Positions 1,376 through 53,501 of a stretch of DNA of 64,000 nucleotides are shown here, piece after piece (the stretch's first letter is position 1; each line of letters opens with the position of its first letter). The notes under the pieces are model-generated. The model saw only the letters and a program-made list of their open reading frames with translations. It was not told the DNA's origin and did no database searches. The position numbers and the translations under genes are program-made. The stretch is from Botryllus schlosseri (Eukaryota). The stretch is from assembly GCA_051294905.1 (NCBI GenBank), contig CM119371.1, positions 18,850,001 through 18,914,000 of the forward strand, written 5' to 3'.

Positions 1376-1453
1376 GCCTACGACCATACCACGTTGAATA
1401 TACCCGATCTCGTCCGATCTCGGAAGTCAAGCAATGTTTGGCCCGGTTAGTAC
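1376..1453 (+). pseudogene. 5' part of 5S gene interrupted by Tx1-like copy 1
   Basis: 5S nt 1-78, then retrotransposon ORF2 sequence; the gene resumes at nt 69 at 4059. Confidence 0.93.
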
Positions 1454-4058
1454 GACGGCATTAATTCGTACGATCAAGACGAATATCTATCATCGTACCA
1501 ACACGACTGCATGCACGGGAAAGACAATGAACAAACATCGGTAATACAATCTAGCGAAATATTACAAATACTAAAAGCAATGAACAGGGAAAGGTCACCG
1601 GGTTTCGACGGCCTGACAGTGGAATTCTACCTTGCAATGTGGCAAAACATTGGCTCGAGATTAACAGAAATCATAAACAACGCGCTAATATACGGAAACA
1701 TACCGCATAGCTGGAAACGTGCTAAAATTATTTTGATTCACAAAGGAAAGGACAAAAAGGATTTAGCGAACTGGCGACCCATTTCGCTATTAAACACGGA
1801 CTACAAAATAATGGCGAAAATTCTCAACAACAGACTGGTTGAGGAAATTTCGAGCAACATCAACATGACACAGAAAGCGGGAATTCCCGGAAGACAAATG
1901 GACGTGATACACAACAATGTGAGTGCAATTGTTAATTATCATCAAGAAAAACCTTTGGAAGGTTATATAATGACAATAGACGCAAGGAAAGCCTTTGATA
2001 AGGTAAATCACCAAATGCTCTTCAAAGTGCTTGGTAAACTGCCCGTCACGAGAGAAACTCTTAAAGTGATCAAAGCTATATATGATAATCCTATTGCGAC
2101 CCTCGAGGTTAACGGCCTCCAAGCAGCCAACGTAAATTGTACGAGGGGCATTAGACAAGGATGTCCTTTGAGTATGACGCTATACGCGATTAGCGCAGAC
2201 CCGCTAGCCCACAAATTATGCACTAACGACAACATCAAGGGTATCCGAATCGGCGGGATAGAGCATAAATTAGACCAATTTGCTGATGACGTCACACTGT
2301 ATCTAAGAACAACTGACTCTATTGCCACAGTCATTAACGAATATCAAAGCTTGCACAGAGTGACAGGTCAAGATATCAACACAGACAAGACGGAAATCCT
2401 ACCGCTGAACGAAAAATCGCGTATCAAACTGCAAAAAACTGCGCACGCAGATATGCTAAAGCCAGTAATTAAGATACTGGGCCTATACCACGGTGAAAGC
2501 GAACTGCAAATGAACTTCGACAGACTCTGGCAAGGAGTCGAGAAAAGCGTAAGGCATATTAAATCAAAACGACTTTCTTGGATTGGTAAAATAATGGCGA
2601 TTAAGGCATACATAATTAGCAAAATAACTTATACATATGCCAACAAGCAAATTCCAGGTGACAAGCTCAAGCAACTCGAACGCCTCGTCTTCGGCCTACT
2701 GTGGAGTCCTGAGAAACTCGAGCAAAAAAGCAGAATGCAACTGATCAGACCTAAGCCAGAAGGAGGGATTGATATGCCAGATATCGAATCTGCAACACAA
2801 GCAAAGAGAGCAAAAAGACTACAACAACTTAGTCGACTCGAGAACCCGATTGATATCTGGCATGCAGAAGCGATATACAATCTCACAACGAAGGTGAGCG
2901 ACATAAATTGCAATTTATACAACAACCTCTACCCTCACAGAAATACATTGACGGAGAAATGGAAGAAAGAAAAGGAAATATTCGACGTAATTAAAAGTCA
3001 ATCACAGGATATACAAGAACTAAGCCAGAAAGAAATGTACCAGATCCTTGTTAAAACAAAGACGCAACAAGAAGGAAGCCGCATGGCGGACTGGAAAGAG
3101 ATATGGCTATACCAGCCCAATATCAAAGATCACATTGACAACAAGAAACGTGAGATTTCTTATCGCATTAACACTGAGAGCTACTTTACAGGCTCCAGAA
3201 AAACCAACGCAGGCTGGGTACGAAGAAAAGACGCCTACTTGAAAAACAAATGCAAATTCTGCCAACACGCCGAAGATACTCTGCGTCACACCTTCGCCGA
3301 ATGCGCAACTTACAAAAAACTGTTCTCTCTTGTAATACAGGATCTCGAGAACGACCTGCAAACGACTATTGACGCTACACCCGACGAGATCATACGCAAC
3401 GTCTACGACGGACCGCAAGCTCCGACTATAATAAAAGCTTTTATGAACGTGAAAACCCTTGTGTGGGAATGGAAAAATGCACTCGACATACAAAATGAAT
3501 ACGCCCAAAATATTGACGAACGCATCAACGATATAAGAAGTAAAATATACCGAATAATTTAAGCGAGCCCATTAAACGCTCGCGCGATAAATTGTATTGT
3601 AGTTATCGACCCACAAAACCCAACCAATCCACCTACCACCTATCCCCCCCCCAAACCTCCCATCCCATCCCTCTTTACCTCAACCCTAAACAACAAACCC
3701 CCCCACCCCCCACCCCCCCACCCCCCGCCCCCCCCCACCCCTACCCAATCCACCCCTAACCCTACCATATTCCTACCCCACCCCTCACCACGCCACCAAA
3801 TTTATATGAAAAACACACGCAAACGAGCGCCAAGTACTGGCGGCTCCTACTACGACCGCAACAACGAATCGACATCGACTGATGCGATGAGATGAGCCGA
3901 GCGACTACGAGCGCCAACCTACGACGGCGTCTACCACGACAGCGAATAAGAATCCGACTTCGGCAACGGCTGAGACGAGATGAACCGATGATGGGGAAAG
4001 ATTTTCTTTATGAAATTTTTGATATTTTATGTACATACTTGAATAAACATCACTAAAA
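1454..4058 (+). mobile_element. 5S-targeting L1/Tx1-clade non-LTR retrotransposon, copy 1 (5'-truncated)
   Basis: Matches the 3' half of 14243-19527; flanked by CGGTTAGT(AC) duplication at 1444-1453 and 4059-4068; ends AATAAACATCACTAAAA. Confidence 0.95.
1511..3562 (+). CDS. Truncated ORF2: reverse transcriptase + C-terminal CCHC, endonuclease missing
   Basis: SPGFDGL, WRPISLLNTDYKI, KAFD, GIRQGCPLS, FADD, CKFC-x8-H-x4-C. Confidence 0.9.
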   Translation: MHGKDNEQTSVIQSSEILQILKAMNRERSPGFDGLTVEFYLAMWQNIGSRLTEIINNALIYGNIPHSWKRAKIILIHKGKDKKDLANWRPISLLNTDYKIMAKILNNRLVEEISSNINMTQKAGIPGRQMDVIHNNVSAIVNYHQEKPLEGYIMTIDARKAFDKVNHQMLFKVLGKLPVTRETLKVIKAIYDNPIATLEVNGLQAANVNCTRGIRQGCPLSMTLYAISADPLAHKLCTNDNIKGIRIGGIEHKLDQFADDVTLYLRTTDSIATVINEYQSLHRVTGQDINTDKTEILPLNEKSRIKLQKTAHADMLKPVIKILGLYHGESELQMNFDRLWQGVEKSVRHIKSKRLSWIGKIMAIKAYIISKITYTYANKQIPGDKLKQLERLVFGLLWSPEKLEQKSRMQLIRPKPEGGIDMPDIESATQAKRAKRLQQLSRLENPIDIWHAEAIYNLTTKVSDINCNLYNNLYPHRNTLTEKWKKEKEIFDVIKSQSQDIQELSQKEMYQILVKTKTQQEGSRMADWKEIWLYQPNIKDHIDNKKREISYRINTESYFTGSRKTNAGWVRRKDAYLKNKCKFCQHAEDTLRHTFAECATYKKLFSLVIQDLENDLQTTIDATPDEIIRNVYDGPQAPTIIKAFMNVKTLVWEWKNALDIQNEYAQNIDERINDIRSKIYRII

Positions 4059-4461
4059 CGGTTAGTACTTGCATGGGTGACCGGCTGGGAATACCGGGTG
4101 TAGTAGGCGGCTTTTTCATTTTTTTCGCACAAACTCGATCAATTTGATCGCTGCGCTGTATTCACGTATGAAGTATCGCGCGAAATTTGTAATTGTAGTC
4201 GGCCTAACGCATTTTCATTATATCGCAATCGTCTTAGAGAAACGGACAATGTCACATAAAACGGCAGAAACTGTCACGATCTGTCGCCTACGACCATACC
4301 ACGTTGAATATACCCGATCTCGTCCGATCTCGGAAGTCAAGTAACGTTGGGCCCGGTTAGTACTTGCATGGGTGACCGGCTGGGAATACCGGGTGTAGTA
4401 GGCGGCTTTTTCATTTTTTTCGCACAAACTCGATCAATTTGATCGCTGCGCTGTATTCACG

Positions 4462-14042: not shown

Positions 14043-14410
14043 ATGAAGTATCGCGCGAAATTTGTAATTGTAGTCGGCCTAACGCATTTTCATTATATCG
14101 CAATCGTCTTAGAGAAACGGACAATGTCACATAAAACGGCAGAAACTGTCTCCATCTGTCGCCTACGACCATACCACGTTGAATATACCCGATCTCGTCC
14201 GATCTCGGAAGTCAAGCAACGTTGGGCAAGCAACGTTGGGCCGAGAGAGGCGGCGAGCGAGACGGACGTGTTTTCGACGCTGCGGAAGATTACTAGCTTA
14301 GAGGCGAGGTATTACTGGATTACGCGAAGTACTGGATATACCGAATATATTGGATAAACGAAATATACTGGATATAAGACATAACACCTGAGAAAGGTAA
14401 AAGATTGATA

Positions 14411-15598
14411 ATGGCGACGGCCATGACGACCTGCAACGCTAGTGAAGCAGAAGGAAATGCTACACAGCCATCATATGCAACAGTAACGTCGAAATCAAAG
14501 AATACAACAACATACAAGAAAACCAAGCAAGAAATACCGATCTACAAGAATACGAGAAATAGGTCTTACTTCGTAAGGGGAGAAGACAACCTTGACCTTG
14601 ATATTGTAGCAAAAGAGCTGGAAAGCAACACCATCACTGCAAAGTACCATGAACACATTGAAGGAGTATACAAACTGAAAGCCGGAACATTCGTTATCAC
14701 AATGAAAGAAGATAAAAGTGGAAAGAAGCTAAAAGACGAATTGCTACAAGAGCTGAGCCGAAACCCTGCACAGGCAGGGTTTAACGAGATAACCATAGAG
14801 CTCCCAAAGCGTCCAGCAACACATCTTATTGTCAAAGGCATAGCATGTGAAACTAAAAGGGACACGGCAGTTGAACAACTGAACAAATATGGATTCGGAA
14901 AGGTTGTCAATCAGACAAGAGTACTTTACAAGAATACTAACTGGTACAATGGCTACACAAACATCTGGATGGAAGATTTCAGAAAAGAAGATATGCCAGA
15001 AAGTATGATTATTGATGGTGTGAGATGCTGGATCCAGACTGCTGCAGATGCATATCAAATGCGATGCTACAACTGCAAGAGGACGGGTCATATGGTCAAA
15101 GATTGCCAATCCGAAAAATTGGAATGCGCGAAATGCAGTCGGCTCGGCCATAGTACAGATGAATGCAAAGCAAAACGTAGCAAAAGACAAAGCGAACACG
15201 AGGCTGAAATCGAAAATGCTGAGGGAGTCAATGATCAAATCGTAGATAACCCTGTGAGAAAAAACTCAAGCGAACCCAATGCTGGTGAGAGAATAACAGA
15301 CGATACGAACGAATCGACGAGAATAACAACAGAGAAACCAGCTGACCTGAATATGAGTCAGAATGAGGACACGAACAGAAATCAAACAGCGCCGAATAGC
15401 CCAGTGATGACGAAATCTTACACGTCAGCGGACGCTGCATACGAGAATGAAGACACAACAGAGGAACACTCCGTACAGCCTCAGGTCAGCGAGAAAAAAC
15501 GCGAATCAGGCAAATCAAATGAAATACAGACGGCCCAAAAGCTACTCAGTAAAAAGTCGTCTAATGCCAACAAAGGACCAAAACCGAGCGCCAGCTGA
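14411..15598 (+). CDS. ORF1, gag-like nucleic-acid-binding protein with two CCHC zinc knuckles
   Basis: First ATG at 14411; CYNCKRTGHMVKDC and CAKCSRLGHSTDEC; low-complexity C-terminus. Confidence 0.9.
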   Translation: MATAMTTCNASEAEGNATQPSYATVTSKSKNTTTYKKTKQEIPIYKNTRNRSYFVRGEDNLDLDIVAKELESNTITAKYHEHIEGVYKLKAGTFVITMKEDKSGKKLKDELLQELSRNPAQAGFNEITIELPKRPATHLIVKGIACETKRDTAVEQLNKYGFGKVVNQTRVLYKNTNWYNGYTNIWMEDFRKEDMPESMIIDGVRCWIQTAADAYQMRCYNCKRTGHMVKDCQSEKLECAKCSRLGHSTDECKAKRSKRQSEHEAEIENAEGVNDQIVDNPVRKNSSEPNAGERITDDTNESTRITTEKPADLNMSQNEDTNRNQTAPNSPVMTKSYTSADAAYENEDTTEEHSVQPQVSEKKRESGKSNEIQTAQKLLSKKSSNANKGPKPSAS

Positions 15599-15755
15599 GA
15601 TAAGGCGGCGAAACAACAATGCGGAAATAGAGTAACGACCAGGAACAACACAAGCAACCAAGTGAGAATAATAAAACCGAATATAAATGGTATTAAAAAA
15701 GACAACAGTAAAAGAAAGACAGCCATAATCCAGCAGGACCCCCAAAACAAAATCA

Positions 15756-18700
15756 ATGGCGAACCTATTGAAGCTAGCATCGGTTAACGTAAATGGATTA
15801 TCAAACAGACTACAGGATTTGGAACAATATATACGGACATCGAATTTGGATATATTATTGATTCAGGAAACGCATAAGATCGATAATGTGGATATACGTA
15901 ACTGGGCAGCGGATATCGGATTTATTATCTACTTCAACACAAAGAACGAAGTGAGACAATATTCTGGCACTGCGATAATGATTAAAGAACATCACGAAGG
16001 TAAAATTTTACGCCACTATAGCATGATCGAAAACCGTGCCCAATGCCTCTGCATTCAAATTGACAAATGTCCAATAACTATAATAAATATTTATGCCCCG
16101 TCTGGACAATCCGCAGATGCGAGAAAGTTACGTGACGATTTCCTAATCCAACTAGAATCAGAAATCCATGAAATTGAAGTCCCGATTATAATGGGTGGTG
16201 ATTTCAACCTAATTATTGACAAAAAAGACACTCGAATTAAACAGAACCTCCATGTCAGAAGCGCCGAGAGACACTTTGAAAAGCTAACTAATGACGCGGA
16301 ACTGATTGACGTGTTTAGGAGTAAACATCCTCTTGCCGAAGTATTCACTTACGTCACTGGAAAAAACGCGAGGAGACTAGATCGTTTCTACGCATCTTGT
16401 GAACTCATGAGCCATGTCCAGAATGCAGGACATGAAAATAACCTTGTGGCTGACCACATAAGTCCGACAATAACACTCGCAATTGAGCCAAGCACTCTAT
16501 GGGGAAGAAAAAATTGGAAGTGTAATAATGACCTTTTGCGAGATGACGTGTACCGAGATATAATATCTAATCTCATCAGCTTTGAAGAGAATAATATCCA
16601 ACACTGCCATGGCATTCAACAATGGTGGGACAGACTAAAAGATAGAATTGCCAACGTAAGTAAGAGATATGAGATAGACAAATATAAAACTTGTGATCCT
16701 CAGATAACGTATCAGAGGGTAACGGGAAAATTGCGCATGTTAACCAAAATTGACCGTTGCGAAGGTGAACCTAACACGACGAGACAATTTTGGCAAGAAT
16801 TAAAGACAAGACGACGCAAGACCGAGCTTAAAGAACTTCAGCTCAGAGATGGAACGGTAACGACTGACCGTAATATTATTGCTAACCAGATTGAACAATT
16901 TTACACAGAATTGTGGACCCGACACGACGGCATTAATTCGTACGATCAAGACGAATATCTATCATCGTACCAACACGACTGCATGCACGGGAAAGACAAT
17001 GAACAAACATCGGTAATACAATCTAGCGAAATATTACAAATACTAAAAGCAATGAACAGGGAAAGGTCACCGGGTTTCGACGGCCTGACAGTGGAATTCT
17101 ACCTTGCAATGTGGCAAAACATTGGTTCGAGATTAACAGAAATCATAAACAACGCGCTAATATACGGAAACATACCGCATAGCTGGAAACGTGCTAAAAT
17201 TATTTTGATTCACAAAGGAAAGGACAAAAAGGATTTAGCGAACTGGCGACCCATTTCGCTATTAAACACGGACTACAAAATAATGGCGAAAATTCTCAAC
17301 AACAGACTGGTTGAGGAAATTTCGAGCAACATCAACATGACACAGAAAGCGGGAATTCCCGGAAGACAAATGGACGTGATACACAACAATGTGAGTGCAA
17401 TTGTTAATTATCATCAAGAAAAACCTTTGGAAGGTTATATAATGACAATAGACGCAAGGAAAGCCTTTGATAAGGTAAATCACCAAATGCTCTTCAAAGT
17501 GCTTGGTAAACTGCCCGTCACGAGAGAAACTCTTAAAGTGATCAAAGCTATATATGATAATCCTATTGCGACCCTCGAGGTTAACGGCCTCCAAGCAGCC
17601 AACGTAAATTGTACGAGGGGCATTAGACAAGGATGTCCTTTGAGTATGACGCTATACGCGATTAGCGCAGACCCGCTAGCCCACAAATTATGCACTAACG
17701 ACAACATCAAGGGTATCCGAATCGGCGGGATAGAGCATAAATTAGACCAATTTGCTGATGACGTCACACTGTATCTAAGAACAACTGACTCTATTGCCAC
17801 AGTCATTAACGAATATCAAAGCTTGCACAGAGTGACAGGTCAAGATATCAACACAGACAAGACGGAAATCCTACCGCTGAACGAAAAATCGCGTATCAAA
17901 CTGCAAAAAACTGCGCACGCAGATATGCTAAAGCCAGTAATTAAGATACTGGGCCTATACCACGGTGAAAGCGAACTGCAAATGAACTTCGACAGGCTCT
18001 GGCAAGGAGTCGAGAAAAGCGTAAGGCATATTAAATCAAAACGACTTTCTTGGATTGGTAAAATAATGGCGATTAAGGCATACATAATTAGCAAAATAAC
18101 TTATACATATGCCAACAAGCAAATTCCAGGCGACAAGCTCAAGCAACTCGAACGCCTCGTCTTCGGCCTACTGTGGAGTCCTGAGAAACTCGAGCAAAAA
18201 AGCAGAATGCAACTGATCAGACCTAAGCCAGAAGGAGGGATTGATATGCCAGATATCGAATCTGCAACACAAGCAAAGAGAGCAAAAAGACTACAACAAC
18301 TTAGTCGACTCGAGAACCCGATTGATATCTGGCATGCAGAAGCGATATACAATCTCACAACGAAGGTGAGCGACATAAATTGCAATTTATACAACAACCT
18401 CTACCCTCACAGAAATACATTGACGGAGGAATGGAAGAAGGAAAAGGAAATATTCGACGTAATTAAAAGCCGATCACAGGATATACAAGAACTAAGCCAG
18501 AAAGAAATGTACAAAATCCTTGTTAAAACGAAGACGCAACAAGGAGGAAGCCGCATGGCGGACTGGAAAGAGATATGGCTATACCAGCCCAATATCAAAG
18601 ATCACATTGACAACAAGAAACGTGAGATTTCGTATCGAATTAACACTGAGAGCTACTTTACAGGCTCCAGGAAAACCAACGCAGGCTGGGTACGAAGAAA

Positions 18701-19034
18701 AGACGCCTACTTGAAGAACAAATGCAAATTCTGCCAACACGCCGAAGATACTCTGCGTCACACCTTCGCCGAATGCGCAACTTACAAAAAACTGTTCTCT
18801 CTTGTAATACAGGATCTCGAGAACGACCTGCAAACGACTATTGACGCTACACCCGACGAGATCATACGCAACGTCTACGACGGACCGCAAGCTCCGACTA
18901 TAATAAAAGCTTTTATGAACGTGAAAACCCTTGTGTGGGAATGGAAAAACGCACTCGACATACAAAATGAATACGCCCAAAATATTGACCAACGCATCCA
19001 AGATATAAGAAGTAAAATATACCGAATAATATAA
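15756..19034 (+). CDS. ORF2: APE endonuclease + reverse transcriptase + CCHC (1092 aa, intact)
   Basis: APE motifs NVNGL, IQET, NIYAP, GGDFN, RLDRFY, DH; RT motifs PGFDG, RPISLLN, QGCPLS, FADD; C-terminal CKFC...H...C. Confidence 0.96.
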   Translation: MANLLKLASVNVNGLSNRLQDLEQYIRTSNLDILLIQETHKIDNVDIRNWAADIGFIIYFNTKNEVRQYSGTAIMIKEHHEGKILRHYSMIENRAQCLCIQIDKCPITIINIYAPSGQSADARKLRDDFLIQLESEIHEIEVPIIMGGDFNLIIDKKDTRIKQNLHVRSAERHFEKLTNDAELIDVFRSKHPLAEVFTYVTGKNARRLDRFYASCELMSHVQNAGHENNLVADHISPTITLAIEPSTLWGRKNWKCNNDLLRDDVYRDIISNLISFEENNIQHCHGIQQWWDRLKDRIANVSKRYEIDKYKTCDPQITYQRVTGKLRMLTKIDRCEGEPNTTRQFWQELKTRRRKTELKELQLRDGTVTTDRNIIANQIEQFYTELWTRHDGINSYDQDEYLSSYQHDCMHGKDNEQTSVIQSSEILQILKAMNRERSPGFDGLTVEFYLAMWQNIGSRLTEIINNALIYGNIPHSWKRAKIILIHKGKDKKDLANWRPISLLNTDYKIMAKILNNRLVEEISSNINMTQKAGIPGRQMDVIHNNVSAIVNYHQEKPLEGYIMTIDARKAFDKVNHQMLFKVLGKLPVTRETLKVIKAIYDNPIATLEVNGLQAANVNCTRGIRQGCPLSMTLYAISADPLAHKLCTNDNIKGIRIGGIEHKLDQFADDVTLYLRTTDSIATVINEYQSLHRVTGQDINTDKTEILPLNEKSRIKLQKTAHADMLKPVIKILGLYHGESELQMNFDRLWQGVEKSVRHIKSKRLSWIGKIMAIKAYIISKITYTYANKQIPGDKLKQLERLVFGLLWSPEKLEQKSRMQLIRPKPEGGIDMPDIESATQAKRAKRLQQLSRLENPIDIWHAEAIYNLTTKVSDINCNLYNNLYPHRNTLTEEWKKEKEIFDVIKSRSQDIQELSQKEMYKILVKTKTQQGGSRMADWKEIWLYQPNIKDHIDNKKREISYRINTESYFTGSRKTNAGWVRRKDAYLKNKCKFCQHAEDTLRHTFAECATYKKLFSLVIQDLENDLQTTIDATPDEIIRNVYDGPQAPTIIKAFMNVKTLVWEWKNALDIQNEYAQNIDQRIQDIRSKIYRII

Positions 19035-19527
19035 GCGAGCCATTTAAACGCTCACGCGATAAATCATGTTGCATTTATCGACCGGCAAAACGCAACCAAT
19101 CCACCTGCAACCTATCCAAACCACCAAACCTCCCATCCCACTCTACCCCACCCCTAAACCAACACCTACTTCCCCAATCTACCCTATCCACCACCCCCCA
19201 TGCCCTATCCCTACCCCACCCACCCCTACCCTATTCCTACCCCACCCACCACCACTCCACCGAATTTATATGAAAATCACACGCAAACGAGCGCCAAGTA
19301 CTGGCGGCTCCTTCTACGACCGCGACAACGAATCGACATCGACTGCTATGATGAGATGAGATGAGACGAGCGACTACGAGCGCCAACTTACGACGGCGTC
19401 TACTACGACCGCGTATACAAATACTACTTCGGCAACGGCTGAGACGAGATGACCAGATGATGGGGAAAGATTTTCTTTATGAAATTTTTGAAAATTTATG
19501 TATATATTTGAATAAACATCACAAAAA

Positions 19528-19929
19528 CGGTTAGTACTTGCATGGGTGACCGGCTGGGAATACCGGGTGTAGGTAGGCGGCTTTTGCACTTTTGTCGCAC
19601 AAACTCGATCAATTCAATTGCTGTGCACTATTCTCATATGAACTATCCCGCGGAATTTGTAATTGTAGTCGGCCTAACGCATTTTAATTATATCGCAATC
19701 GCCTTATGCTCAGAGAAACGGACAATGTCACATAAAACGGCAGAAACTGTCACAATCTGTCGCCTACGACCATACCACGTTGAATATACCCGATCTCGTC
19801 CGATCTCGGATGTCAAGCAACGTTGGGCCCGGTTAGTACTTGCATGGGTGACCGGCTGGGAATACCGGGTGTAGGTAGGCGGCTTTTGGACTTTTTTCGC
19901 ACAAACTCGATCAATTTGATTGCACGTAC
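19528..19929 (+). rRNA. 5S 3' half (19528-19578) and one complete 5S gene (19762-19880) between copies 2 and 3
   Basis: 5S core sequence. Confidence 0.93.
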
Positions 19930-20082
19930 TTCGTACTTCGTACTTCGTACTTCGTAAGGGGAGAAGACAACCTTGACCTTGATATTGTAGTAAAAGAGCT
20001 GGAAAGCAACACCATCACTGCAGAATACCATGAACACATTGAAGGAATATACAAACTGAAAGCCGGAACATTCGTTATCACA

Positions 20083-21168
20083 ATGAAAGAAGAGAAAAGT
20101 GGAAAGAAGCTAAAAGATGAATTGCTACAGCAGCTAAGCCAAAACCCTACGCAAGCAAAGTTTAACGAGATAACCATAGAGCTCCCAAAGCGTCCAGCAA
20201 CACATCTTATTGTCAAAGGCATAGCATGTGAAACTAAAAGGGACACGGCAGTTGAACAACTGAACAAATATGGATTCGGAAAGGTTGTCAATCAGACAAG
20301 AGTACTTTACAAGAATACTAACTGGTACAATGGCTTCACTAACATCTGGATGGAAGATTTCAGTAAAGAAGACATGCCAGAAAGTATGATTATTGATGGT
20401 GTGAGATGTTGGATCAAGACTGCTGCAGATGCATATCAAAAGCGATGCTACAACTGCAACGGAACGGGTCACATGATCAGAGATTGCCCAGCCGAAAAAT
20501 TAGAATGCACGAAGTGCGGCGGGCTTGGCCATGGTGCAGAAACATGCAAAGCAAAACGTGGCAAAAGACAAAACGAACACGAGGCTGGAATCGAAAAGGC
20601 TGAGGGAGTCAATGTTCAAATCGCAGATAAACCGGTGAGAGTCAACTCAAACGAACCCCATGCTGGTGAGAGAAAAACCGACGAAACGAACGAATCGGCG
20701 AAAACAACAACAGAGAAACCAGCTGACCTGAATATGAGTCAGAATGAGGACACGAGCAGAAATGAAACAGCGCCGAATAGCCCAGTGATGACGAAATCTT
20801 ACACGTCACCGGACGCTGCATACGAGGATGAAGACACAACAGAGGAACACTCCGTACAGCCTCAGGTCAGCGAGAAAAAACGCGAATCAGGCAAATCAAA
20901 TGAAACACAGACGGCCCAAAAGTTACTCAGTAAAAAGTCGTATAATGCCAACAAAGGACAAAAATCGAGCGCCAGCTGTGATAAGGCGGCGAAACAACAA
21001 AACGGAAATAGAGTAACGACCAGAAACAACACAAGCAACCAAGTGAGGATAACGAAACCGAATATAAATGGCATTAAAAAAGACAACACGAAAAAGAAGA
21101 CAGCCATAATCCCGCAAGACCCCCAAAACAGAACCAATGGCGAACCTATTGAAGCTAGCATCGATTAA
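20083..21168 (+). CDS. ORF1 of copy 3 (N-truncated; overlaps the ORF2 start at 21137)
   Basis: Homologous to 14411-15598; two CCHC knuckles. Confidence 0.85.
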   Translation: MKEEKSGKKLKDELLQQLSQNPTQAKFNEITIELPKRPATHLIVKGIACETKRDTAVEQLNKYGFGKVVNQTRVLYKNTNWYNGFTNIWMEDFSKEDMPESMIIDGVRCWIKTAADAYQKRCYNCNGTGHMIRDCPAEKLECTKCGGLGHGAETCKAKRGKRQNEHEAGIEKAEGVNVQIADKPVRVNSNEPHAGERKTDETNESAKTTTEKPADLNMSQNEDTSRNETAPNSPVMTKSYTSPDAAYEDEDTTEEHSVQPQVSEKKRESGKSNETQTAQKLLSKKSYNANKGQKSSASCDKAAKQQNGNRVTTRNNTSNQVRITKPNINGIKKDNTKKKTAIIPQDPQNRTNGEPIEASID

Positions 21169-21246
21169 CGTAAATGGACTATCAAACAGACTACCGGATT
21201 TAGAACAATATATACAGACATCGAATTTGGATATATTATTGATTCA
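21137..21246 (+). pseudogene. ORF2 N-terminus of copy 3, cut off by the Penelope-like insertion
   Basis: MANLLKLASINVNGL...LLIQ, then foreign sequence. Confidence 0.9.
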
Positions 21247-21284
21247 ATATTGCAGCAAACAATACGCTCATATTGTAAATTTAT

Positions 21285-21324
21285 TCCACTGGAAGCTTTT
21301 CGTCTGGCTCTCTTCAGCAGTGAA
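21285..21324 (-). ncRNA. Minimal type I hammerhead ribozyme (second copy, Penelope 3' UTR)
   Basis: Reverse complement of 22982-23021. Confidence 0.8.
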
Positions 21325-21485
21325 CGCCAGAAAATGAGGTTAACCAAGTTCGAAATATAGGAAGAATTTTGTCGTTGTGACGTAATAATGACAAGTACAC
21401 AAGTCGCGAACGGCAGTAAACAGCGCACGGTTACGGTACAGCACACACGAAATCAGCTGTAAAACAGCCGAATGACAAAACAACA

Positions 21486-22373
21486 CTAATGGAAGATTCC
21501 CAGCGTGTAGAGATGTTCCTTCTGGCGGCAGAGGATCGGCTTTTGCAGCTTTATAATGGTTGATTCAAGGACCTTTAAATGAAAAAGAGAACGACCACGA
21601 GCAACTATGGAAAACTGATTGATATTGTAATGTTTTGCACACTCTGGGTGTTTCAATAGGTGCTGTCCGATGGCAGAATTACATGCTGTTACTTGGTCAT
21701 AATCATGCATGGTAACTAGGGACTGTGATGATGAAGCAGACATGTCATCACCCTGCGAATTCCTAATTTGACGTGGGACATGTTGACGAATTCTTTGTTG
21801 CAAGCGTTGAGATGTGCGACCCACATACCGACTGTCACATCGGCACGTATATTGGTAAATTATGTAACTCTGATCAATCGCAGGAAGCACATCCTTACGC
21901 GTTGCTGGTAGCAAAGACTTCGTAGTAAATATGACACGGGGTTCCACTTGTGGGAAACAATGACTCACGGAGGACTTAATCTGTTTTTCAAACCTGTTGC
22001 AGGCTGTGCCTATCCACGGGAGATGCAAATAAACTGGGCACCTTCTCGGTCCAAACGGCTTATCTTTGTGGAAATCTTGTATTTTACGTTCAATAGTTAC
22101 TTTGACAATACGCTCAGGATATCCATTGGCAAGGAAAATGGATTTGATAGTATTTATTTCACAATCCAGTTTGTCATTGCTGCAAATCATCAGGGCCCTG
22201 TGTACCAGGGTTCTTATCAAATTGATTTTACGTTTCACAGGGCAAAACGAATCCCATGAAAGATACTGGCCACTGAATGTAGTCTTACGGTAGACAGATG
22301 TAACAAAATTATTGTTCATCTTCTCAACAAAGACATCCAAAAACGGTATCGAATTGTTATTCTCTTTTTTCAA
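21486..22373 (-). CDS. Penelope RT thumb + GIY-YIG endonuclease (continuation after frameshift)
   Basis: IPFLDV, VYRK, NGYP, IIYQYTCRCDSRYVGRT, RIRQH, IGQH, LES. Confidence 0.9.
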   Translation of the reverse strand: MKKENNNSIPFLDVFVEKMNNNFVTSVYRKTTFSGQYLSWDSFCPVKRKINLIRTLVHRALMICSNDKLDCEINTIKSIFLANGYPERIVKVTIERKIQDFHKDKPFGPRRCPVYLHLPWIGTACNRFEKQIKSSVSHCFPQVEPRVIFTTKSLLPATRKDVLPAIDQSYIIYQYTCRCDSRYVGRTSQRLQQRIRQHVPRQIRNSQGDDMSASSSQSLVTMHDYDQVTACNSAIGQHLLKHPECAKHYNINQFSIVARGRSLFHLKVLESTIIKLQKPILCRQKEHLYTLGIFH

Positions 22374-22887
22374 CAGTAAACTTGAGAGAAGGGTGAAGGT
22401 TATTTAATTTGGCCAGAAACAAATCACATTGAGCTTCATTATTAAACATGACAAAAGTGTCATCAACATAGCGATAGTACATCAATGGCCGATCGGCACT
22501 ATCCAACAATCTCTTTTCATGAAACCCCACAAAGATGTTAGCCAAGATGGAGCCGAGTGGAGAACCCATGGCCAAACCATCTGTCTGTTTGTATATGGTG
22601 TTATTAAAACTAAATTCAACACCGCAAGTCGCCATTCGCATAAGTTTTACGAACATGGATTTGGAAAATGGCGGAGACGGAAGCTCACCACCATAAAGTG
22701 CATTGGCGCAGATCTCTATGGTTTCCTCAATAGGGACATTGGTGAAGAGGCTCGATATATCAAAGGAGCTGAGGTATACCTTGGAGGCATCATGATCTAT
22801 ATTATTGATAATATTAGCAAACGTGAACGAGTCCCGAATGCAGTTGTCAACATAGAGCGCACTCACCGGCTTAAGGAATTCCACCAT
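22357..22887 (-). CDS. Penelope-type reverse transcriptase core (fragment, frameshifted)
   Basis: SFDISSLFTNVP, QTDGLAMGSPLG, YYRYVDD. Confidence 0.9.
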   Translation of the reverse strand: MVEFLKPVSALYVDNCIRDSFTFANIINNIDHDASKVYLSSFDISSLFTNVPIEETIEICANALYGGELPSPPFSKSMFVKLMRMATCGVEFSFNNTIYKQTDGLAMGSPLGSILANIFVGFHEKRLLDSADRPLMYYRYVDDTFVMFNNEAQCDLFLAKLNNLHPSLKFTVEKRE

Positions 22888-22981
22888 CCACTTCGTTCGC
22901 GACTTGTGTACTTGTCATTATTACGTCACAACGACAAAATTCTTCCTATATTTCGAACTTGGTTAACCTCATTTTCTGGCG

Positions 22982-23021
22982 TTCACTGCTGAAGAGAGCC
23001 AGACGAAAAGCTTCCAGTGGA
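22982..23021 (+). ncRNA. Minimal type I hammerhead ribozyme in Penelope pseudo-LTR
   Basis: TTCACTG-CTGAAGA-G(AGCCAGA)C-GAAA-AGCT-TC^CAGTGGA. Confidence 0.8.
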
Positions 23022-23083
23022 ATAAATTTACAATATGAGCGTATTGTTTGCTGCAATATTGAAGTTCTGTACTTCGAAAAGCC

Positions 23084-26000
23084 TATTATTGATTCAGGAA
23101 ACGCACAAGATCGATAATGTGGATATACGTAACTGGGCAGCAGATATCGGATTTATTATCTACTTCAACACAAAGAACGAAGTGAGACAATATTCTGGAA
23201 CTGCGATAATGATTAAAGAACATCACGAAGGTAAAATTTTACGCCACTATAGCATGATCGAAAACCGTGCACAATGCCTCTGCATTCAAATTGACAAATG
23301 CCCAATTGCTATAATAAATATTTATGCCCCGTCTGGACAATCCGCAGATGCGAGAAAGTTACGTGACGATTTCCTAATCCAACTAGAATCAGAAATCCAT
23401 GAAATTGAAGTCCCGGTTATAATGGGTGGTGATTTCAACCTAATTATTGACAAAAAAGACACTCGAATTAAACAGAACCTCCATGTTAGAAGCGCCGAGA
23501 GACACTTTGAAAAGCTAACTAACGACGCGGAACTGATTGACGTATTTAGGAGTAAACATCCTCTTGCTGAAGTATTCACTTACGTCACTGGAAAAAACGC
23601 GAGGAGACTAGATCGTTTCTACGCATCTTGTGAACTCATGAGCCATGTCCAGAATGCAGGACATGAAAATAACCTTGTGGCTGACCACATAAGTCCGACA
23701 ATAACACTCGCAATTGAGCCAAGCACTCTATGGGGAAGAAAAAATTGGAAGTGTAATAATGACCTTTTGCGAGATGACGTGTACCGAGATATAATATCTA
23801 ATCTCATAAGCTTTGAGGAGAATAATATTCAGCACTGCCACGGAATACAACAATGGTGGGACAGACTAAAAGATAGAATTGCCAACGTAAGCAAGAGATA
23901 TGAAATAGACAAATATCAAACCTGTGACCCTCAGATAACGTATCAGAGGGTAAAAGGAAAATTGCGCATGTTAACCAAAATTGACCGTTGCGAAGGTGAA
24001 CCTAACACGACGAGACAATTTTGGCAAGAATTGAAGACCAGACGGCGCAAGATCGAGCTTCAAGAACTTCAGCTCAGAGATGGAACGGTAACGACCGACC
24101 GTAATATTATTGCTAACCAGATTGAACAATTTTACACAGAACTGTGGACCCGACACGACGGCACTAATTCGTACGATCAAGACGAATATCTATCCTCGTA
24201 TCAGCAAGACTGCATGCACGGGAAAGACAATGAACAAACATCGGTAATACAATCTAGCGAAATATTACAAATACTGAAAGCAATGAACAGGGAAAGGTCA
24301 CCGGGGTTCGATGGCCTAACAGTGGAATTCTACCTTGCAATGTGGAAAAACATTGGCTCGAGATTAACAGAAATCATAAACAACGCGCTAATATACGGAA
24401 ACTTACCGCATAGTTGGAAACGTGCTAAAATTATTTTGATTCACAAAGGAAAGGACAAAAAGGATTTAGCGAACTGGCGACCCATTTCGCTGTTAAACAC
24501 GGACTACAAAATAATGGCGAAAATTCTCAACAACAGACTGGTTGAGGAGATTTCGAGCAACATCAACATGACACAGAAAGCGGGAATTCCCGGAAGACAA
24601 ATGGACGTGATACACAACAATGTGAGTGCAATTGTTAATTATCATCAAGAAAAACCTTTGGAAGGTTATATAATGACCATAGACGCAAGAAAAGCCTTTG
24701 ATAAGGTCGATCACCAAATGCTGTTCAAAGTGCTTGATAAACTGCCCGTCACGAGAGAAACTCTTAAAGTGATCAAAGCCATATATGATAATCCTATTGC
24801 GACCCTCGAGGTTAACGGCCTCCAAGCAGCAAATGTAAATTGTACGAGGGGCATTAGACAAGGATGTCCTTTGAGTATGACACTATACGCGATTAGCGCA
24901 GACCCTCTAGCCCACAAACTATGCACTAACGACAACATCAGAGGTATCCGAATCGGCGGGATAGAGCATAAATTAGACCAGTTTGCCGATGACGTCACAC
25001 TGTATCTAAGAACAACTGACTCTATTACAGCAGTCCTTAACGAATATCAAAGCTTGCATAGAGTGACAGGTCAAGATATCAACACAGGCAAGACGGAAAT
25101 CCTACCACTGAACGAAAAATCGCGTAACAGATTGCAAAAAACTGAGCACGCACATATGCTAAAGCCAGTAATTAAGATACTGGGCCTATACCACGGAGAA
25201 AGCGAACTGCAAATGAACTTCGACAGACTCTGGCAAGGAGTCGAGAAAAGCGTAAGGCATATTAAATCAAAACGGCTTTCTTGGATTGGTAAAATAACGG
25301 CGATTAAGGCATACATAATTAGCAAAATAACTTATACATATGCCAACAAGCAAATTCCAGACGACAAGCTCAAGCAACTCGAACGCCTCGTCTTCGGCCT
25401 ACTGTGGAGTCCTGAGAAGCTCGAGCAGAAAAGCAGAATGCAACTGATCAGACCTAAGCCAGAAGGAGGGATTGATATGCCAGATATCGAATCTGCAACA
25501 CAAGCAAAGAGAGCAAAAAGACTACAACAACTTAGTCGACTCGAAAACCCGATTGATATCTGGCATGCAGAAGCGATATACAATCTGACAACGAAGGTGA
25601 GAGATATAAATTGCAATTTATACAACAACCTCTACCCTCACAGAAATACATTGACGGAGGAATGGAAGAAGGAAAAGGAAATTTTCGACGTAATTAAAGG
25701 CCAATCACAGGATATACAAGAACTAAGCCAGAAAGAAATGTACAAGATCCTTGTTAAAACGAAGACGCAACAAGGAGGAAGCCGCATGGCGGACTGGAAA
25801 GAGATATGGCTATACCAGCCCAATATCAAAGATCACATTGACAACAAGAAACGTGAGATTTCGTATCGCATTAACACTGAGAGCTACTTTACAGGCTCCA
25901 GAAAAACCAACGCAGGCTGGGTACGAAGAAAAGACGCCTACTTGAAAAACAAATGCAAATTCTGCCAACACGCCGAAGATACTCTGCGCCACACCTTCGC

Positions 26001-26265
26001 CGAATGCGCAACTTACAAAAAACTGTTCTCTCTTGTAATACAGGATCTCGAGAACGACCTGCAAACGACTATTGACGCTACACCCGACGAGATCATACGC
26101 AACGTCTACGACGGACCGCAAGCTCCGACTATAATAAAAGCTTTTATGAACGTGAAAACCCTTGTGTGGGAATGGAAAAACGCACTCGACATACAAAATG
26201 AATACGCCCAAAATATTGACCAACGCATCTCCGATATAAGAAGTAAAATATACCGAATAATTTAA
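23084..26265 (+). CDS. Remainder of copy 3 ORF2 (APE lacking first motif, RT, CCHC), open frame
   Basis: Colinear with 15756-19034 from LLIQET onward. Confidence 0.9.
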
Positions 26266-29200
26266 GCGAGCCATTTAAACGCTTGCGCGATAAATCATAT
26301 TGCATTTATCGACCCACAAAACGCAACCAATCCACCCACAACATATCCAAACCTCCCATCCCACTCTGCCACACCGCTAAACAAACATATATACTCCCCC
26401 AATCTACCCCATCCACCACCACCCCATGCCCTATTCCTACACCACCCACCCCTACCCTATTCCTACCCCACCCACCACCACTCCACCAAATTTATATGAA
26501 AATCACACGCAAACGAGCGCCAAGCACTGGCGGCTCCTTCTACGACCGCGACCTCGAATCGACATCGACTGCTACGATGAGATGAGATGAGACGAGCGAC
26601 TACGAGCGCCAACTTACGATGGCGTCTACTACGACCGCGTATACAAATCCTACTTCGGCAACGGCTGAGACGAGATGACCCGATGATGGGGAAAGTTTTT
26701 TCTTTATGAAATTTTTGAAATTTTATGTACATATTTGAATAAACATCACAAAAACGGTTAGTACTTGCATGGGTGACCGGCAGGGAATACCGGGTGTAGT
26801 ATTAGGCTGCTTTTGCATTTTTGTCGTACAAACTCGATCAATTCGATTGCTGTGCACTATTCTCATATGAACTATCGCGCGAAATTTGTAATTGTAGTCG
26901 GCCTAACGCATTTTCATTATATCGCAAACGCCGTAGAGAAACGGACAATGTCACATAAAACGGCAGAAACTGTCACAATCTGTCGCCTACGACCATACCA
27001 CGTTGAATATACCCGATCTCGTCCGATCTCGGAAGTCAAGCAACGTTGGGCCCGGTTAGTACTTGCATGGGTGACCGGCTGGAAATACCGGGTGTAGTAG
27101 GCGGCTTTTTCATTTTTTTCGCACAAACTCGATCAATTTGATCGCTGCGCTGTATTCACGTATGAAGTATCGCGCGAAATTTGTAATTGTAGTCGGCCTA
27201 ACGCATTTTCATTATATCGCAATCGTCTTAGAGAAACGGACAATGTCACATAAAACGGCAGAAACTGTCTCGATCTGTCGCCTCTACGACCATACCACGT
27301 TGAATATACCCGATCTCGGAAGTCAAGTAACGTTGGGCTCGGTTAGTACTTGCATGGGTGACCGGCTGGGAATACCGGGTGTAGTAGGCGGCATTTTCAT
27401 TTTTTTCGCACAAACTCGATCAATTTGATCGCTGCGCTGTATTCACGTATGAAGTATCGCGCGAAATTTGTAATTGTAGTCGGCCTAACGCATTTTCATT
27501 ATATCGCAATCGTCTTAGAGAAACGGACAATGTCACATAAAACGGCAGAAACTGTCACGATCTGTCGCCTACGACCATACCACGTTGAATATACCCGATC
27601 TCGGAAGTCAAGTAACGTTGGGCCAGGTTAGTACTTGCATGGGTGACCGGCTGGGAATACCGGGTGTAGTAGGCGGCTTTTTCATTTTTTTCGCACAAAC
27701 TCGGTCAATTTGATCGCTGCGCTGTATTCACGTATGAAGTATCGCGCGAAATTTGTAATTGTAGTCGGCCTAACGCATTTTCATTGTATCGCAATAGTCT
27801 TAAAGAAACGGACAATGTCACATAAAACGGCAGAAACTGACAGGATCTGTCGCCTACGACCATACTACGTTGAATATACCCGATCTCGGAAGTCAAGTAA
27901 CGTTGGGCCCGGTTAGTACTTGCATGGGTGACCGGCTGGGAATACCGGGTGTAGTAGGCGGCATTTTAATTTTTTTCGCACAAACTCGATCAATTTGATC
28001 ACTGCGCTGTATTCACGTATGAAGTATCGCGCGAAATTTGTAATTGTAGTCGGCCTAACACATTTTCATGATATCGCAATCTCGTGCTGTTTTGACATGA
28101 CGAAAATTCCAATAAAATAACTACTCTGACAGCGAGAGCTTACTTGTCTGTTTTTCGACCAGACACAAGAACAGAGCAGGACGCCAATGATATTCGACCT
28201 CTAATTGGTCAGAAAGTGCCTCGGCGCAATAAGACTATCTACTATTCTGGCGTCTCGTCGACAGCATGGCGACGGAAATTGTCACATAAAACGGCACAAA
28301 TCGTAACCACTGTCGCCTACGACCATACCACGTTGAATATACCCGATCTCGTCCGATCTCGGATGTCAAGCAACGTTGGGCCCGGTTAGTACTTGCATGG
28401 GTGACCGGCTGGGAATACTGGGTGTAGGTAGGCGGCTTTTGGACTTTTTTCGCACAAACTCGATCAATTTGATTGCACGTACATCTATGAATGTCATCAT
28501 TTGCTGGCCGCCGCTTCTTTCAGCTATGAACTCGCGCTCAATTTGTAGTTGTACGGGGCCGTTTTCAATATATCGCCATCTCGTGCCGTTTTGGCATGAC
28601 GAGAATTGCAATAAAATAAACTCTGACACGGAGAGCTTAAGTTTTATGTGTGTTTTTTGACCAGTTCGTCCGAAAGTGCCTAAGAGCAATCAGACAATCT
28701 GCTTTTCAGGCGTCTCGTTGACAGCGTGGCGACGGAAATTGTCACATAAAACGGCACAGATCGTAACCGCCGTCGCCTACGACCATACCACGTTGAATAC
28801 ACCCGATCTCGTCCGATCTCGGAAGTCAAGCAACGTTGGGCCCGGTTAGTACTTGCATGGGTGACCGGCAGGGAATACCGGGTGTAGTATTAGGCTGCTT
28901 TTGCATTTTTGTCGTACAAACTCGATCAATTCGATTGCTGTGCACTATTCTCATATGAACTATCGCGCGAAATTTGTAATTGTAGTCGGCCTAACGCATT
29001 TTCATTATATCGCAAACGCCGTAGAGAAACGGACAATGTCACATAAAACGGCAGAAACTGTCACAATCTGTCGCCTACGACCATACCACGTTGAATATAC
29101 CCGATCTCGTCCGATCTCGGAAGTCAAGCAACGTTGGGCCCGGTTAGTACTTGCATGGGTGACCGGCTGGAAATACCGGGTGTAGTAGGCGGCTTTTTCA

Positions 29201-46038: not shown

Positions 46039-47018
46039 CAGTGTTGGGATCAAGTCACTACCTTCGAGTCACGAGTCATTTCGAGTCATTGCACATTTTG
46101 ACTCGAGTCAAGTCAAGTCAATCGGTTTTCAAAGGTGACTCGAGTCAAGTCAAGTCACTCGATTTTTGGAGGTGACTCGAGTCAAGTCGAGTCAAGTCAA
46201 GTCAAGTCACGAGTCAAGTCACATTTCAAGTCAAGTTGCCTTTTCGATGTATGTATGAGGCATGATTACGTCATTGCAATTTGCTAGCTGTCTGAAATAC
46301 AGTTTGAGTGGTCATTGGTCATTGATTCCGAACCAATGACCGAATATAGAGTTAAATATACACGATAGAAGGCGCTGTATCGCTCACATATGCGTAGAAC
46401 TGTTAAACCACGTAATTGCATAGCCTCAGTTTATAGTTACCAACCAAAATAGAGAATGGAGAAACGAACTGAGAAGATGCAATATGTTACCCATTTACAA
46501 ATAGATATGATACCATTCGAGCCTGCGCCAATGGTTGAGGATTATATAAACTATAATCGACTTCAATTTCAATAAAACAATCGATTTGGTTAAGGTAAGA
46601 TAAGAACAGAGAACAGAAATATACATTTTGCTATTCTATTACTTTAACACTACAGTTACAACAACGTAAGCTTTAAGCTTTGATCACTTCGTTCAATCTA
46701 TTTGTGAGAGAACAATCGAGGCTCGGTGAAATGCACGCTCATTGAATGATTGGTCGCTCTCACGGGTTACACAAGCGTTTCGCGAACAATCAGAACATGT
46801 CCAAGATACAGTGATTTTTATCGGCACCGATTACTTGATGACTTGAAATTGACTCGTGAATTGTGCTCCGAGTCACGAGTCAATCCACATTTCTGATACG
46901 CCGAGTCAAGTCAAGTCAAGTCATTTTAGCAAGGTGACTCGAGTCAAGTCAAGTCATGCGAAAAAGGTGACTCGAGTCTGACTCGAGTCAAGTCATGACT
47001 CGAGTCATCCCAACACTG
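46039..47018. mobile_element. Non-autonomous hAT-type DNA transposon (MITE), 980 bp
   Basis: 12-bp TIR CAGTGTTGGGAT/ATCCCAACACTG; 8-bp TSD AATTGTAG (46031-46038, 47019-47026); subterminal GACTCGAGTC/CAAGT repeats. Confidence 0.9.
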
Positions 47019-50329: not shown

Positions 50330-50486
50330 CCCAGCAAACACAAAACCGTAAAAGGATCATCCGGGATCATCTCGATTAGGTTCTGATTTTCTAAGTGTCG
50401 AGGGAATGTCTAAAATACGTAGTAGGATGGTCTTGTGGTTATATTCAATCAGAATAAATTCATACTCGGTGTTGTTCCATCTCATG

Positions 50487-50814
50487 CATTAGGCTTCGTT
50501 ATATCCGGTAGTTAACCTAATAATGCAAATTTTCTATCTCTCGCGGGTACGACTAAAATACGTAGAAAGGATGACTTTGTCGGTACATTCAATCACGATG
50601 AATTCTATCCGGTTTTGTTCGATCTCATGCGGTAGCTTCGTTCTATCCATTAGGCTTCGTTATATCCGGTAGTTAACCTAATAATGCAAATTTTCTATCT
50701 CTCGCGGGTACGACTAAAATACGTAGAAAGGATGACTTTGTCGGTACATTCAATCACGATGAATTCTATCCGGTTTTGTTCGATCTCATGCGGTAGCTTC
50801 GTTCTATCCATTAG
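50487..50814. repeat. 161-bp tandem duplication, subterminal in the 5.8-kb element
   Basis: CATTAGGCTTCGTTATATCC at 50487 and 50648. Confidence 0.9.
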
Positions 50815-51989
50815 AAAACAATGTTCTCCCTTCGTTTTATTGCGTGAGGATGTCACCGGTGTTGTATATTCGTGTTGTTGCTCTAAAGTCGAATAGTTTT
50901 GTTTTCCTCTGATATATATGATCTTCATTATATATATATTCGCTCTTTCGGTAATCTCGCATGTTCAACGAGTATGGTTAATAGTTTTATTCAGAGAATA
51001 ACTAAATAAGTGATATGTTGTACGTTTAGGAATATGATTATCGATGCGTGACTTCTAGAATATTTCGGCGATTCAAATTTTACGTCATCGCGCCATACAA
51101 AGATTTGAAGCGCAACAGGTCGCAGCCAGGCATAGTTCGCTCTTTCTGTATGGTAAATGCCGTAAATATATAGGAATTGTGACTGACTGAGGTAGCGGGT
51201 TAAAGGTATATATGCAGTAGCATATAGCTTATGGGGTATTTCGAATTGCCTGTAGTATATGACGCCTAGAGCTGTTTGACTTTCTGCAAAACAGGTGTAG
51301 ACAACTATAGAAAAGTTTCAGCTTTTCCAGGTTAGAATTAGAGCTAAACCGTTTTTCCGAATTAGATTACAATTATATTGCTGGCATTTCGCTCTAATTT
51401 AGTGAAATTAGACCACTATAATTCGCTTCAAACATCTGAATTACCGGTACCTATACCTACGGTATATCATAATATTTATGCTTGAATTTCCTAGGTATAT
51501 AAGTCATATAGATACATTCCTGTAGAACACTGATTCATGATTTTATAAAAGTTGGTGCAAGAATGGAAATTTTCAACTTGATGTTGATTAATGGAGCAAA
51601 ATTTGATATTTGAGTGCAATTATACCTCGAATCCAGTGACAAGATTATTAATCGTTGAAACCAAACGCAGCTTGATTATGTTGGCCAGAGAATTTGGCTA
51701 GCCAGACCATATTGATGGAATATGGTCACAGTAAGATAATATTTTGGGCTATTTTACATGAACTTTCCAACATTTGATTTGATATGTCCACTAAAACAGT
51801 TGTTATTCTGCTTTCGAATAAGACCTTAATTGCTGGTTTCAATGGTAACTGTGTTTGTCAAAGGCTGCAAAGGTAATTTCTTTTCCTTGTTAGATGTTTA
51901 TTTGTTTGTTTGTGGTGTTCATGGTGGTGGTTCGACTACACTGGTCATTTTACACCAGGCCGGTTCTTATTATTATTCCGTATCTGCCC

Positions 51990-52879: not shown

Positions 52880-53501
52880 ATCTGCCCACTTACAGCACGG
52901 CCCACTCCTAGGCTTTTTAAGACATGGCTATGCGAATCAGATGGCGAGGAGGAGCCTAGATAAACGGTCAACACTTCGGTAGGAATTATGGAGTCGACGT
53001 GTCACGCTCGAACCCGCAATTCATTGGTGTTTAGCTATAATGGGACGTACCACTACGTTTCCTCGCCATACCTTGTAAAATGAGACCGTAGCATTTGGCA
53101 TTTCGTGTGGCAATTGACTTTTGTGTGGAAAATTGTGTTCGTTTTAGAACTTATCCGAAACTTTTATTCCGCCATAGTTTGTATATGATAAAACAATATC
53201 GGAATTGATCCTAGAAGAATTCCAAAGCAACTCACCACAAAGGAGGATTTAAAGAAGTTTGATGGAAAATTGAATGAAAGCAAAAGCCTTTGCAAGAGAT
53301 GTGGTATGTTGAATCTGTTTTGGTATTTTTAAATAGGCCTACTTTGTTGTGCCGATAGCAGACAGTATATATAAACGTAAGATGTGGAAGCTATCAAGGT
53401 GTTTTTAGAAATTCAGTCAGTCAAAGTGGACGATCGTATTGCTTGGATTATATTTAGGCTTATTTTAGCATCTTTGAGATGCAACTCTAAACGTGGACGG
53501 T

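Follow-up and report, generated by a model that had tools for sequence, protein, structure and literature searches.

L1-group elements form 5′ junctions with microhomology, fillers and 5′ transduction. Elements of the Tx1 clade have two ORFs, ORF1 with a CCHC knuckle and ORF2 with an APE endonuclease and a reverse transcriptase (RT). R1 is also an APE element. In the melanogaster group, R1A transcripts include 6–27 nt of upstream 28S, some full-length R1A copies have a target-site duplication (TSD) followed by 16–27 duplicated bases, and off-target full-length copies retain 7–28 bases of 28S (PMC2718515, excerpted text). R2 elements with a ribozyme that cuts in upstream 28S show direct tandem duplications of 13–28 nt ending at the insertion site, and a model has been proposed in which such a junction duplication can become fixed and lengthen the 5′ end (PMC3774820, excerpted text). 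Target preference has been described for Tx1 (PMC4494074, excerpt), many members of which show it.

Mutsu (MutsuDr1-7) is a 5S-specific LINE of zebrafish; its insertion site lies about 20 nt into the 5S gene, counted from the 5′ end, according to the excerpt of PMC5340908. It is also named as the 5S-inserting LINE in passages of PMC10946416 and PMC11202950. No study of how a 5S-targeting LINE joins its 5′ end turned up in a literature search that covered neither Repbase nor Kojima and Fujiwara 2004, where Mutsu was first described. The element analysed here is inserted in a 5S gene and carries, at its 5′ junction, a tandem duplication of upstream target sequence.

The 5S array

The window, meaning the whole stretch of 64,000 nt that was analysed (18850001–18914000 of its contig), contains 106 Rfam matches to 5S and represents a eukaryotic 5S rDNA array. 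Positions within the 5S gene are numbered with nt 1 at 14161. The allele with C57 and C60 is the commonest (47 of the 106 matches) and the best-scoring 5S type. A higher-order repeat of 2906 bp, consisting of units a, b, c, d, e and f, terminates at the element named E2 below. Units of the type found at 49798 have C26, C57 and T60, in 8/8 cases in the window. Fusions between units, without any element, are present in the block of the array that contains E2. Remote from elements, a mismatch between the leader and nt 57 was found in one of 103 units. In unit 62145, nt 57 is switched with no element involved.

Many 5S units, including those at 7497, 10403, 13309 and 27567, are without the 10 bases between two CCGATCTCG repeats. 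This loss is a slippage deletion, and the units that bear it have nevertheless been amplified inside higher-order repeats. Downstream of the units at 7497, 10403 and 13309 lies an 852-bp spacer containing an apparent 3′ piece of another LINE. Non-5S inserts are also present in the array (46099–47007 and 50330–56300). They comprise short repeats of the AGTCA type and a 6-kb stretch that splits a spacer after unit 50100 and includes a 161-bp tandem repeat.

The E2 element and its family

Three copies of one non-LTR element, E1, E2 and E3, are present in the window. All end just before GGTTAGTAC, which begins at 5S nt 70.

1376..4059, + strand, E1 (element from about 1452), 5′-truncated, TSD of 7–9 bp, mosaic upstream 5S half
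14243–19528, + strand, E2, the full-length copy among the three in the window
14243..14410, + strand, 5′ UTR of E2, beginning with GAGAGAGG, like copies L002 and L003
14411..15598, + strand, ORF1 of E2, with a CCHC zinc knuckle
15756..19034, + strand, ORF2 of E2, 1092 aa, with APE endonuclease and reverse transcriptase
19035..19528, + strand, 3′ UTR of E2, ending with CATCACAAAAAC, poly(A) tail absent
19925..26755, + strand, E3 (element from about 19945), 5′-truncated, joined to spacer, about 360 bp of array lost

Domain searches matched zf-CCHC (E 4.6e-07), Exo_endo_phos (E 1.9e-12) and RVT_1 (E 4.5e-29), and a CCHC-like motif was noted by eye close to the C terminus of ORF2. Among solved structures (PDB), ORF2 is closest to human L1 ORF2p (E 4e-75); R2 was matched with E 7e-20. 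The ORF and domain arrangement of E2 is that of the Tx1 clade, and the 12 copies found at 5S nt 69/70 show a target preference of the Tx1 type. The matched homologues bear no clade names, and the E2 family is treated here as a putative member of the L1/Tx1 group. Like Mutsu as it appears in the excerpt of PMC5340908, it is about 5.3–5.5 kb long, has two ORFs with endonuclease and RT, and uses a fixed 5S site. It differs in its end, AAAAAC, the search criterion for Mutsu having included a poly(A) stretch (PMC5340908), and in its site, nt 69/70 of the 5S gene and also GG(T) sites off the array.

ORF1 of E2 stops early at TGA (15596–15598), where L060 has TGG and L005 and E3 have TGT. E2 and L060 differ at just 9 of 2907 bases, and E2 is therefore young. 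A chimera of unlike subfamilies was not seen from base 842 onward (99.7% and 99.6% identity to L060 and L028), bases 1–841 having no close relative for comparison. The 5′ UTR has a private extra GCG near +9 and, at about +58, AGAGGCGAG, which repeats its own start. An 18-bp subrepeat at 14330–14376 is weakly like 5S nt 19–33, the best match being 13/14 in L024 (24/1000 shuffles); that of E2 is not above chance. An Rfam ribozyme search of 14200–14600 gave no match at E up to 10, and the fold of the 5′ end of E2 was no better than shuffles (z-scores 0.15 and 0.43). A ribozyme at this end is thus not indicated, though one that is not modelled may remain. E3 is interrupted near the start of ORF2 by a Penelope-like element (21247–23083, minus strand), with matches to RT and, weakly, to GIY-YIG in two frames.

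The 5′ junction of E2

The 5′ junction of E2 and its surroundings consist of the following parts.

14161..14226, + strand, 5′ half of the 5S gene, nt 1–66, TCTCC leader (unit type a), C57 and C60
14213..14226, + strand, first repeat copy, 5S nt 53–66, containing the 8-bp palindrome CAACGTTG
14227..14242, + strand, second repeat copy plus CC, 5S nt 53–68
19529..19761, + strand, 3′ flank of E2, 5S nt 70 onward and spacer, 49798 unit type (C26, C57, T60)

As the sequence-only reading had reported, CAAGCAACGTTGGG occurs twice in tandem (14213–14226 and 14227–14240), followed by CC (14241–14242) and then by the element, which begins with GAGAGAGG at 14243. The repeated 14-mer is 5S nt 53–66, and 14227–14242 is identical to nt 53–68 of a C-type 5S gene. 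The C at 14227 can be read as nt 67 or as nt 53, which amounts to a microhomology of 1 nt. The pattern spanning the repeat was found in one place only in the 495-Mb assembly, and an adjacent repeat of at least 8 bp at one of 124 5S starts (window plus 8.6 kb upstream). The duplication is real and unique in the assembly. No read or contig covered 14213–14242 in the sequencing runs examined, depth being 0 in three runs that covered the element. With their many differences from the window, these runs are probably from other individuals, and the assembly is the sole source for the duplication.

The lack of a TSD claimed by the same reading was also borne out: the 3′ flank begins with nt 70 (19529), and nt 70–78 are missing upstream of E2. 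Thirteen truncated off-array junctions were examined, and in the four with a recoverable TSD (L032, L038, L046 and L049) the target base before GG is G or T in every case. The terminal C is thus part of the element itself, and E2 has lost nt 69 and has no TSD.

Mosaic flanks

The two flanks of E2 come from different units. The 3′ flank is identical to the unit at 49798 over 150/150 bases and differs from the upstream unit type; the following unit matches 50100 by eye. The 5′ flank carries the leader of unit a. All eight other units genome-wide with this TCTCCATCTGTC leader have T at nt 57, among them the four named in the sequence-only reading (428, 5148, 8349 and 11255), and C occurs at 14161 only, so the difference pointed out there holds. 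However, since the flanks are from different units, the leader does not reveal the allele of the target before insertion. From nt 1 to nt 67, the sequence at 14161 is identical to unit b, the next after a, and to 18 window units in all. The repeated piece, with C57 and C60, fits neither unit a (T57) nor the 3′ flank type (T60); therefore a third template, DNA or RNA, was used. A single crossover between the type of the leader and that of the 3′ flank was discarded as the source of the C, as it would yield T60. The rarity of nt-57 mismatches remote from elements makes a link between the C and the insertion probable, as had been proposed.

The truncated copy E1 has the leader of unit c (350/350 upstream) and the gene half of unit d, with three differences from 6/6 other c units. 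A mismatch between leader and allele thus needs no RNA 5′ end. Eight flank pairs were judged by eye: unit types differ between the 5′ and the 3′ flank in L061, L027 and L071 too, those of L006, L003, L060 and L007 appear concordant, and L034 fits neither group clearly. These data suggest that insertion goes along with deletions or exchanges in the 5S array. Borders between unlike 5S unit types host several copies (14243, L061/L031, L027 and L071).

Variety of 5′ junctions in the family

Twelve family copies are inserted at the same 5S base, nt 69/70, in the assembly (11 of 12 pattern matches, the other one being off-array, plus L031). A TSD is present in four: E1 (7–9 bp), L003 (9 bp), L034 (6–7 bp) and L061 (5 bp). 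Two junctions are blunt with microhomology (L060 and L027). Four have a deletion: L006 (nt 36–69), L071 (nt 62–69), E3 (about 360 bp) and L070 (onto spacer). The remaining two, E2 and L007, halt at nt 67 and have a filler. Full 5′ ends were found in only three copies of the assembly, E2, L003 and L002, with three unlike junctions; two of these copies, E2 and L003, are inside 5S.

Among the copies that lack the first bases of the element, 3/10 have junction repeats or fillers. E3 has three extra 7-mers. In L061, CGGTTA A is doubled, which can alternatively be read as a 5-bp TSD and one A. The 26-base filler of L007 matches a 5S spacer variant at 24/26 bases and the adjacent unit at 22/26. In run X4, one contig runs from nt 69–78 into 5S from −4 onward and then into the element from +33. 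As these fillers occur in copies without the first bases of the element, they are not an RNA leader.

The element end is followed by GG at 29/29 counted loci and by GGTT at 18/29. Taken together, priming is fixed at nt 69/70, just 5′ of GG, 5′ joining is variable, fillers come from array DNA and flanks are mosaic. Off-array copies L030, L032, L033 and L055 end at GGTTC sites resembling tRNA or SINE T-loops. A decayed 5S unit at L034:2109, without an element, has a tandem repeat of ~12 bp around nt 45–56.

Probable 5S letters in the family RNA

The copy L002/L050 is a single full-length element inside a tRNA-like SINE (L002:1483–1520 at the 5′ end), broken by at least two inserts, one of them at element base 4609. 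Its 5′ junction reads GCGTCC GGTTAG GA GAGAGAGG, and the SINE target reads GCGTCC then GGCTTC. The TTAG is absent from the target and continues 5S nt 70–75. The four extra matching bases, nt 72–75, have a chance of 1 in 256 and were seen in the one off-array copy with a full 5′ end.

In the RNA run X24, 14/125 placed reads have a loose end before 14252. The consensus of this loose end, from which it is known rather than from individual reads, ends with GGTTAGTACGAGAGA (agreement 0.68) and shows nt 70–78; the 15 letters preceding these are not 5S. The leftmost letters may be off-array flank, or presumably could be library oligo. In the same run, 14213–14242 has a depth of 0, no transcript start was called, and both strands carry first mates equally.

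A sister family, L012–L025, is internally deleted, and its 5′ UTR includes 21 bases that are lacking in the E2 family. This UTR (about 1455–1505 in L012) contains decayed 5S nt 47–78, then the start motif of the element. Aligned with the junction of L003 (5S nt 47–78 plus element nt 1–12), the best copy, L012, matches at 35/46 bases (0/1000 shuffles), and all 11 copies tested gave at most 9/1000 shuffles; this query was picked after the alignment was known, and the 11 copies, belonging to a single family, do not amount to 11 tests. Compared with the 5S gene by itself, the best copy gave 8/1000 shuffles, and 4/11 copies were under 20/1000. The match stops at nt 78, which is the end of the TSD of L003, and then enters the start motif. 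From these alignments the UTR could be read as an old fixed junction. Part of the 5S-like stretch is a small hairpin, and the likeness may be due to chance or to selection for structure. A 5S flank is absent from all L012–L025 loci. In the E2 family itself, the UTR was not above chance against 5S (121–496/1000 shuffles for E2), rows of L006 being left out as they matched flank rather than UTR.

The sequence-only reading had the element RNA start inside upstream 5S sequence. Letters apparently derived from 5S are found before the start of the element in L002, in the X24 reads and in the sister UTR, three modest lines of support from outside the E2 junction, and it is likely that the family RNA sometimes starts in the 5S letters on the TSD side, nt 70–78. 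The part of the proposal that is not supported is a start at nt ~53 that would produce the junction of E2: the carried pieces all include nt 70 onward (to nt 75 or 78), which E2 is without. Moreover, ordinary TSDs in other full-length copies had been named as part of what would refute the proposal, and L003, the only other full-length copy in 5S, has one of 9 bp. Pol III read-through from the upstream 5S half was considered as a source of RNA starting at nt 53; it would be unlikely, as the C box is cut off, transcription would begin with nt 1, and there is a T4 run near +28.

Discussion

On balance, the duplication appears to have been a one-off, untidy 5′ joining templated by 5S DNA, with slippage at a neighboring C-type unit. 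Once a full-length cDNA had been made at a 49798-type unit, its end would have been attached to a cut 5S end lying far upstream; the intervening array would have been lost, or an exchange would have followed later. The 5S end used would have had C57 and C60, the simplest source being unit b, which an exchange within nt 1–56 would have fused to the leader of a. Synthesis would have reached nt 67, slipped 14 bases back on the single C, recopied nt 54–68 and entered the element; the RNA of E2 would need no 5S nt 53–68. This course of events is favored by the varied 5′ junctions of 12 copies at one 5S base, by the junction repeats or fillers in 3/10 truncated copies and in the X4 contig, and by the mosaic flanks of E1, L061, L027 and L071. 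It also draws support from the identity of nt 1–67 at 14161 with unit b, from the element-free unit fusions in the same block and from the fact that no read or contig examined joins nt 53–68 to the element. It is weakened by the need for a third template and two steps where a 5S-bearing RNA would take one, by the rarity of leader/nt-57 mismatches remote from elements, by the a/b fusion, which is inferred and not seen elsewhere, and by the 5S letters that the family RNA seems to carry. The uniformity of full-length junctions is barely tested by two full-length copies in 5S. A snap-back at the palindrome CAACGTTG was rejected, as no inverted sequence follows it.

An R1A- or R2-like origin would have the RNA of a source copy without a TSD begin at nt ~53 and the cDNA end pair with nt 53–56 of unit a; copying would then have turned T57 into C, and a slip doubled the piece. 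One event would thus account for the duplication, for the C in both copies and for the start of the repeat. The GGTTAG of L002, the 14 X24 reads with nt 70–78 upstream of the element and the resemblance of the sister UTR to the L003 junction all speak in its favor, as do the upstream-target duplications known from the excerpts on R2 (13–28 nt, PMC3774820) and R1A (16–27 nt, PMC2718515). However, every carried 5S piece includes the nt 70 onward that is missing in E2, none of the three full 5′ ends is a TSD-less source copy, depth is 0 over 14213–14242 in three runs, and the X24 letters before nt 70 are not 5S. There is also neither a ribozyme match nor an unusual fold at the 5′ end, and the sister UTR comparison is post hoc, in one family, with 4/11 copies below 20/1000 against 5S alone. 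This origin is judged rather unlikely. The same doubtful standing is given to the wider scheme in which RNA starts inside 5S nt ~47–78, the cDNA end pairs with the array and the 5′ UTR is lengthened by a fixed junction, E2 being a fresh case. The conversion of the target base by a 5S leader RNA, proposed from sequence, is not required, as duplications, fillers and mismatches between leader and allele also occur in truncated copies; in its strong form that model is possible, not favored.

A third template could also be 5S rRNA: having run off the element RNA, the RT would have jumped to a fragment with its end at nt 68 and copied from it 16 bases with C57 and C60, and the cDNA end would then have paired and slipped. 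C57/C60 being the commonest allele and the best-scoring type agrees with such a jump, and the excerpt of PMC4494074 (citing Buzdin 2002 and Garcia-Perez 2007) describes template switching by L1 onto small RNAs. It is nonetheless improbable, as the fragment must end within a base of the insertion site and untranscribed spacer or leader is part of the fillers in L007 and the X4 contig, which are thus DNA-derived. Equally little weight is given to the possibility that slippage and conversion of an ordinary kind in the dead 5S half produced the repeat and the C once the element was in place, or that the repeat is an assembly error. In its favor are the ~12-bp repeat in the decayed, element-free unit beside L034, the many units with the 10-bp slippage deletion and the nt-57 switch of unit 62145, and no read among the runs examined confirms the repeat. 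Against this, the repeat ends 2 bases from the junction and is the sole one in 124 units, and the youth of E2 leaves little time.

A single duplication is in itself a known kind of junction. That it should be unexpected for an APE element, as the sequence-only reading held, is wrong: R1A of the melanogaster group, itself an APE element, has upstream 28S in its RNA and produces duplications of this sort (PMC2718515, excerpt). Both R1A, which is 28S-specific, and the E2 family are APE elements in a tandem RNA gene, and upstream target is duplicated in full-length R1A copies as it is in E2. Off-target full-length copies of R1A keep target letters at the 5′ end (excerpt of PMC2718515), as L002, the one such copy here, may do with four bases of nt 72–75 and not of nt 53–68. 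The same excerpt (PMC2718515) gives a precise 9-bp deletion shared by 75% of full-length R1A copies, whereas the three full 5′ ends here, a small sample, have three different junctions, two of them in 5S. In R1A the duplication follows a TSD (PMC2718515, same excerpt); E2 is without one, and the piece apparently carried in the E2 family is on the TSD side, nt 70–78. Nor are duplications restricted to full-length copies as in R1A, 5S fillers being present in the truncated L007 and in the X4 contig.

The fixed-junction model of R2 would fit the decayed junction in the UTR of the sister family (PMC3774820, excerpt). R2 differs in having one ORF, a restriction-like endonuclease, an HDV-like ribozyme and co-transcription by Pol I (PMC3774820); the E2 family has two ORFs and an APE endonuclease, gives no Rfam ribozyme match and sits in a Pol III gene. 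Its junctions are mixed like those of the L1 group, TSDs and deletions occurring beside microhomology and templated fillers. The target of E2 is by contrast a tandem array, so that joins and fillers can draw on other 5S units and flanks can be mosaic.

Of all steps of retrotransposition, the 5′ joining of a LINE is the least settled. Where a young, site-specific family inserts among distinguishable 5S units, as here, each base of a junction can be traced to its donor unit, a rare situation. As insertion often accompanies joins between different units, the element may reshape the 5S array. If it is true that the RNA starts in the target, a mechanism described for the 28S elements R2 and R1A would also apply to an element of the L1/Tx1 group whose target is a Pol III gene.
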